1,789 bases of DNA from a virus (Duplodnaviria > Heunggongvirae > Uroviricota > Caudoviricetes): the IMG/VR virus record IMGVR_UViG_2778261085_000015; one strand, 5' to 3'. How positions within the stretch are numbered: the first letter of the stretch is position 1; the number at the start of each line of letters is the position of its first letter. Below the pieces are notes generated by a model. It did no database searches. It was not told the DNA's origin and worked only from the letters and a program-made list of their open reading frames with translations. A program made the translations under genes and the position numbers. Shown in pieces: positions 1 to 270 of the stretch.

Positions 1-270
1 TCACTTAGCCGCGTGTCCACTATTGCTGGGTAAGATCAATTTTACGCCTTTTTGTGCAATGGCAATATCTGCCTGTAATAACTTTTCAGCCTGTAGTTCA
101 TCAATACCATTGGGGAAAGATTCACCACTTTTGAGTAAGTGACCATAACCAATTGTGGGATAACCTAGATGGTCTTTGTATACGTGGAAACGACCATAGC
201 GGAATGTACCAATATGTGATTGATACTTTAAACTACCTTCATAATCTTTTAGTTTTTGTTCTAATGTCAT
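1..270 (-). CDS. e: T4 e-type lysozyme (glycoside hydrolase family 24) homolog, N-terminal lobe only; 89 aa, stop codon TGA at window positions 3..1 (minus strand)
   Basis: ORF with ATG at 270..268 preceded on the minus strand by AAAGG with an 8-nt spacer. The product has Glu at residue 11 in a DYEG context (T4 lysozyme has DEG with catalytic Glu11) and the motif [16 protein letters not shown], which matches the recalled T4 lysozyme YKDTEGYYTIGIGHLL. Downstream, [16 protein letters not shown] matches the recalled AEKLFNQDVDAAVRGI. The protein ends about 75 aa short of a full T4-type lysozyme. Family assignment is by eye against a remembered reference, not a search. Confidence 0.8.

Follow-up and report, generated by a model that had tools for sequence, protein, structure and literature searches.

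The question raised by this locus is whether a lysozyme-like gene that ends after its amino-terminal half encodes a genuinely short protein or is what remains of an interrupted one. The window, by which we mean the whole 1,789-nucleotide stretch of DNA analysed, comes from a Caudoviricetes virus record (IMGVR_UViG_2778261085_000015) and carries an 89-amino-acid open reading frame (ORF) on the minus strand at its left end (positions 1..270). A first-pass annotation, made from the sequence alone, had described this product as having Glu11, Asp33, Thr39, a particular 12-residue tail and a TGA stop, all of which translation confirmed. It had proposed that the gene was either a complete N-lobe-only protein or had been broken by a lesion, an intron or a mobile element. 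We conclude, with a probability of about 90%, that an IS3 element transposed into a prophage lysozyme gene after the first base of codon 78, and that the truncated product is most likely inactive. The ORF is a chimaera of 77 lysozyme residues and 12 residues encoded by IS3.

The lysozyme portion, at positions 39..270 on the minus strand, comes from the 5' end of a prophage lysozyme gene of the GH24 (T4) type and comprises codons 1-77 and the first base of codon 78. The GH24 catalytic set is present in the ORF, where E11, D33 and T39 are the equivalents of Glu11, Asp20 and Thr26 of T4 lysozyme; the Glu11 codon lies at 240..238, and Asp33 and Thr39 are also encoded within the fragment. Against the PF00959 (Phage_lysozyme) profile the 89-residue ORF scored 31.9 bits (E 1.9e-7; curated gathering cut-off 22.3 bits), and the match covers profile positions 7-56 of 125 only. 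A score of this size over the first half of the profile alone indicates that the lysozyme similarity and the truncation are both real rather than products of chance, and it bears out the earlier view that the gene stops after its N-terminal half. The complete two-lobed GH24 fold is lacking, as lysozyme sequence ends after residue 77. With its C-lobe missing, the window copy is thus a truncated pseudogene of a GH24 member and not a functional member. The product is listed in RefSeq as WP_097309422.1, a 'glycoside hydrolase family protein' seen on 4 contigs, and belongs to the same 90%-identity cluster as forms of 148 amino acids that are seen on up to 170 contigs each.

The remainder of the ORF is mobile-element DNA. 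Window positions 1..38 (minus strand) are the left terminal end (IRL) of IS3 in the same orientation as the lysozyme gene, as identified from matches in E. coli genomes and from an annotated IS3 copy; read on the minus strand they are TGATCTTACCCAGCAATAGTGGACACGCGGCTAAGTGA. The junction between lysozyme and IS3 falls at window 38/39, inside the ORF and exactly at the first base of the element (TG...). The last codon that is lysozyme in full is codon 77 (AAA, Lys); of codon 78 (TTG), the first base belongs to the host gene and the other two to IS3, and codons 79-89 and the TGA stop directly after the tail (window 3..1) belong wholly to the element. Residues 78-89, which had been read as lysozyme sequence, are instead encoded by IS3 through the last 38 bases of the ORF.

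When the window was compared by megablast with 5,426 complete E. coli genomes, bases 1-38 were matched at 14,434 places, spread over 3,942 of the genomes with a median of 4 per genome, and such multi-copy matching is the signature of a mobile element. The annotated feature adjoining one of these matches is an 'IS3-like element IS3 family transposase'. Matches at the window's left end sometimes reach bases 1-50/67, so that for several unrelated IS3 copies the match extends 12-29 bases past the end of the element (query 1-50 at 96%, up to 1-67). The bases just outside the IS3 left end are ...GCGTAAAAT here and ...GGGTAAAT at the copy in the ykgJ region (L004). The likeness of flanking bases among IS3 copies may reflect a target-site preference of IS3, or chance.

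The exact 89-residue protein is encoded on contig NOTU01000022.1 of GCA_002521485.1, with 39 bp left between the end of the gene and that of the contig. Beyond the window this source contig continues with GTAAACTCTCAGTCAGAGGTGACTCACATGACAAAAACA, 39 bp further into IS3, and then stops. On the coding strand, window base 38 and all that follows it on the contig read TGATCTTACCCAGCAATAGTGGACACGCGGCTAAGTGAGTAAACTCTCAGTCAGAGGTGACTCACATGACAAAAACA, and these 77 bp are identical at 77 of 77 positions to the left end of the annotated IS3 copy in L004. The DNA directly left of the window, where the first-pass annotation had proposed to look for the missing C-lobe motifs, is IS3 over the 39 bp up to the contig end. 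The IS3 part of the source contig includes, before the contig end, ATGACAAAAACA, with which the first reading frame of the published IS3 sequence opens. Short-read assembly would be expected to break a contig within an insertion sequence present in many copies.

The reference IS3 copy (L004) is 1257 bp long, ends in ...GGGTAGGATCA and has a transposase coding sequence flagged as frameshifted. IS3 in general is about 1.26 kb long, has TG...CA ends, belongs to the IS3 family and makes a 3-bp target duplication; a literature search on its length and target duplication returned nothing directly useful. An inverted-repeat search of the reference copy with a 9-nt seed found none because the terminal repeats of IS3 are imperfect, and the ends of the copy were located by direct string matching. 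Megablast against a phage collection returned a single match, to 40 bp of the IS3 end, and nothing on the locus. That match is in OR851460.1, 'Salmonella phage S.Kent 1-2-1', an unverified 1832-bp clone (positions 1258-1297; L001), which probably derives from a host or a contaminant and not from a phage.

Megablast of the window located the same locus in 25 of the 5,426 complete E. coli genomes. Twenty near-identical copies (97.7-99.9%) align from window 39 to 1776-1789 and none from base 1, and five diverged copies (~75%) align from window 137-140 on. In those near-identical copies that were read or translated, the lysozyme gene runs on past the point that corresponds to base 39. The closest genome, that of strain WGI31CT (99.9%), has a 447-nt 'glycoside hydrolase family protein' gene whose 148-residue product, WP_032285534.1, is identical to the window ORF over residues 1-77 and is followed by 71 further residues. 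This continuation restores the T4-lysozyme C-lobe motifs FQxG and WYxQTPNR, and the intact allele scores 47.8 bits against PF00959 over profile positions 7-109 and matches T4 lysozyme PDB chains with E values of about 1e-15 to 1e-17. The check that had been proposed, for a full-length gene in related phages, is thus answered by the prophage gene of WGI31CT, and of the possible causes of interruption that had been listed it is insertion of a mobile element that is supported.

In the wider protein family, about 400 relatives were found among 5.8 billion proteins searched. The 120 of them that were listed belong to prophage regions in Escherichia, Klebsiella, Enterobacter, Cronobacter, Citrobacter, Yersinia, Serratia, Pantoea and further genera, and nearly all have 146-150 amino acids (the exceptions have 133, 129, 155, 156 and 257), and the shortest (129-135) are broken alleles. 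No conserved set of homologues of about 80-90 residues ending at the same point was present among these 120 of about 400 relatives.

Two further features had been marked as departures from T4 lysozyme, an insertion of about 13 residues between the catalytic Glu and the YKD motif and a deletion after GHLL. Both are present in the alignment, at residues 14-26 (positions 193..231, minus strand) and as about 14 residues missing after GHLL, but they are family-wide and not specific to this gene. The 13-residue segment occurs in 28 of 28 aligned family members opposite a gap in T4 lysozyme, and the segment after E-G and the deletion after GHLL are found throughout alignments of 28 and of 86 members. 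Y16, Q17 and K27, in or beside the segment, are nearly invariant among the 86 members. Of the catalytic residues, T39 never varies in these members, and E11 and D33 are conserved to at least 90%. Of the 14 columns invariant across those 86, nine (W87, Q97, G99, F106, S128, W130, Q133, T134 and R137) fall in the part that the window copy has lost. Judged by these alignments, the insertion and the deletion are conserved traits of a GH24 subfamily and not lesions.

These observations bear directly on what else the 89-residue ORF might be. That it is a genuine and complete N-lobe-only member of a distinct short lysozyme-like family could be argued from an ORF that is intact, with a start and a stop, and that is listed in RefSeq. 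However, its last 12 residues and its stop are IS3 DNA, the listed relatives are nearly all of 146-150 residues with the shorter ones broken, and residues 1-77 are identical to those of a 148-residue protein from a family in which C-lobe residues are invariant. The IS3 junction refutes such a protein, which had been one of the two options first proposed, and we give it practically no credence. Just as hard to believe is a gene that is split by a self-splicing intron, or by the insertion of a homing endonuclease connected with the GIY-YIG gene next to it, and that is made whole again in the RNA. That SegE-like gene does lie 43 bp from the lysozyme start codon, but it is on the 5' side, is itself frameshifted and occupies this position in every E. 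coli copy examined, the ones with intact lysozyme among them, so that the earlier judgement that it is not linked to the truncation holds. An Rfam scan of the whole window (E <= 10), group I and group II introns included, gave chance-level matches only, none better than E = 3. The interrupting DNA is IS3, which refutes a split of this kind.

A chimeric join of lysozyme and IS3 reads, made during assembly at the contig end, would agree with a junction that is 77 bp from that end. We consider it very improbable, since the same 89-residue product, and hence the same junction, was read on 4 contigs, the source contig was seen in 2 samples, and the junction coincides with the first base of the terminal repeat of IS3, as in true transposition. 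Rather less easily dismissed, if still unlikely, is that the junction marks a deletion, inversion or recombination mediated by IS3, so that the gene's 3' half would be missing or elsewhere in the genome, possibly along with much of the prophage. The contig stops within IS3, and a median of 4 IS3-end places per E. coli genome allows recombination between copies. Because the source contig ends inside the element, simple insertion and an IS3-mediated deletion or inversion are indistinguishable on it. Exact protein look-ups of the predicted chimeric downstream-fragment ORFs, composed of guessed sequence (IS3, a 2-5-bp duplication and the rest of the gene), were also negative, which is a weak test: the only match, to a 40-residue internal piece, belongs to an unrelated cluster, is found on an ENA contig of 1.5 kb and is uninformative. 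Fragments so small are seldom annotated as genes and their exact sequence was guessed, so this negative result carries no information, and simple insertion is the commonest outcome of transposition.

We therefore favour the insertion of IS3 into an otherwise ordinary gene, and the sequence of events can be outlined as follows. A copy of about 1.26 kb would have entered the endolysin-type GH24 gene of a ~33-kb prophage between rimO and bssR, at a point after the first base of codon 78 that would correspond to the end of the long helix linking the two lobes. Translation would then pass codon 77 into the IS3 left end, add 12 unrelated residues and halt at the TGA of the terminal repeat, and the product would keep the N-lobe with Glu11, Asp33 and Thr39 and lose the C-lobe, with half of the substrate cleft and most of the family invariants. 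A 3-bp target duplication (AAT) would flank the element. Simple insertion predicts that the IS3 right end ...GGGTAGGATCA is followed by AAT-CACTTAAGATTGATCTCCCG and by the upstream prophage tail genes; written as a string, the predicted right junction would be ...ACGTGGGTAGGATCA, then (AAT)CACTTAAGATTGATCTCCCGTCTGATTGG, then DUF2730 and the tail genes. The 3' part of the lysozyme gene is likely still to lie beyond IS3, to the left of the window.

In the established model of T4 lysozyme, the active site sits between the two lobes. As the 89-residue product lacks every one of the invariant C-lobe residues, it is most likely inactive, a view based on C-lobe conservation and on what is known of T4 lysozyme. 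The prophage has probably lost its lysozyme lysis function and with it the ability to lyse its host. We think it highly doubtful that the gene now acts as a split lysozyme. For this, the 77-residue N-lobe with its 12 IS3-encoded residues and a C-lobe fragment re-initiated beyond IS3 would have to come together non-covalently as an enzyme, active or regulated; given a 3-bp duplication, the reading frame of the fragment would include a GTG within the right end of IS3.

Other E. coli lineages carry their own broken versions of the gene, which we took from proteins P0123, P0128, P0002 and P0011. The allele of strain SI-NP020 (L005:1325-1732) has a +1 G insertion near codon 132 and yields a 135-residue product ending ...WYRSDT, and this frameshifted form was seen on 90 contigs. 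A 129-residue form starts at residue 20 and is without Glu11, and the ~75%-diverged prophage variant has a different lysozyme N-terminus, also without Glu11. The probable loss of lysis in the window prophage fits these independent lesions of the same gene. Such recurrent decay suggests that this prophage family is often defective for lysis, and a remote possibility is that the repeated breaks (IS3, the +1 frameshift and the altered N-termini) reflect selection that disarms lysis while accessory genes are kept.

On the other side of the lysozyme gene is an A+T-rich spacer (271..313), delimited by sequence and ORFs, which separates it from a divergent, low-G+C cluster of small genes (314-1789, plus strand) and presumably holds both putative promoters. 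The cluster opens with a SegE-type GIY-YIG gene (314..746, plus strand; from Pfam and ORFs), which had been called decayed and is indeed frameshifted. It consists of a 44-residue ORF (314-448) and a 104-residue ORF (432-746) with a one-base frameshift between them, and any single-base deletion at about 395-446 fuses the halves into a 143-residue ORF and raises the PF19835 score from 41 to 62 bits (profile 10-101). The two-ORF split is likewise annotated in WGI31CT and SI-NP020, which are both of the near-identical annotated copies that were read, and in the diverged STEC384 copy the 103-residue 3' part alone is called. As the split is common to other copies, the lesion looks old or tolerated. 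The fused product would consist of the nuclease domain alone, as no DNA-binding domain can be recognised in it.

The rest of the cluster is made up of three tightly packed, low-G+C ORFs of 196, 106 and 42 amino acids (743-1789, plus strand). The starts of the first two overlap the preceding stops (GTGA at 743-746 and ATGA at 1330-1333). None of the three has a match in Pfam, PHROGs or PADLOC, and all are conserved at the prophage right end in 25 of 25 E. coli copies.

In WGI31CT the lysozyme gene is near the right end of a ~33-kb prophage between rimO and bssR (L007:17246-48301), which encodes a large serine recombinase, terminase, portal, capsid, tail tube and tail fibre proteins, a DUF2730 protein and a SMODS/SLATT pair. 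The right flank of the source contig is the same as in WGI31CT (bssR/YliH, yliI, gstB, dacC and deoR). The serine recombinase has 581 amino acids and is encoded at the left end, and the SMODS nucleotidyltransferase and SLATT genes (L007:26436-27736) look like a putative defence module. The prophage occupies different sites, being found beside mdtG in SI-NP020 (L005), inside yegD in STEC384 (L006) and, in the source strain as in WGI31CT, between rimO and bssR. Directly after the stop codon of the intact lysozyme gene there is a G+C-rich hairpin with a T-run (AAAGGGAAGCCAACAATGGTTTCCCTTTTTTATT; L003:5740-5785), which by its sequence looks like a putative intrinsic terminator common to the convergent DUF2730 and lysozyme genes.

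Our findings have practical implications for annotation. WP_097309422.1 is the product of an IS3-truncated pseudogene with its last 12 residues derived from the insertion sequence; its annotation needs correcting, and it should not be counted as evidence for a minimal N-lobe lysozyme. More broadly, where a protein with an unrelated tail is found at the edge of a window or contig, a repeat element may have cut the gene.

The event itself is of an ordinary and already-known kind, the routine disruption of a prophage gene by IS3, and it involves no new type of protein. It resembles the known inactivation of chromosomal and prophage genes of E. coli by IS3 in the identical terminal sequence, the junction at the first base of the element, the stop codon supplied by the end of the insertion sequence and the breaking of contigs in a multi-copy repeat. 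Compared with those cases nothing here is unusual, and the insertion is seen at its left junction alone.

The lysozyme can be compared with T4 lysozyme (gene e; GH24, PF00959), with which it shares the catalytic residues (here E11, D33 and T39) and the GxGHLL motif, and in the intact allele also FQxG and WYxQTPNR. An AlphaFold2 model of an intact member has a mean pLDDT of 93.8, and its best PDB matches are T4 lysozyme entries (query-normalised TM 0.73-0.76; 29-30% identity; 164 alignment columns). On this model, the intact protein is confidently predicted to have the two-lobed T4-lysozyme fold, with the 13-residue segment forming a short helix (residues 14-20) and short strands in the N-lobe (pLDDT about 90). 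In contrast to T4 lysozyme, the family has the 13-residue insert (14-26) between E-G and (R)xxxYKD, has some 14 fewer residues following GHLL and, at 148 versus 164 residues, is about 16 shorter overall; the window copy, in addition, is without the whole C-lobe.

Among phage protein families, residues 3-145 match PHROG 13211 ('baseplate hub subunit and tail lysozyme') best, with E 5e-37; this family is represented in the jumbo phages PBECO4, 121Q and SP27 of Escherichia and XaC1 of Xanthomonas. Tblastn likewise found about 45% identity over residues 3/6-146 in jumbo phages, in matches that fall under features annotated as lysozyme or as baseplate hub and tail lysozyme. These domains align from residue 3-6 on with no large gap, and share the same insert-bearing architecture. 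In the jumbo phages the domain takes up the last ~150 residues, at the C-terminus, of a virion or tail protein (so annotated) that spans ~887 profile positions, whereas here it is a stand-alone protein of 148 residues in a small temperate prophage. Together with the family matches, this places the insert-bearing architecture in an established GH24 subclade, rather than marking it as an oddity of a single gene.
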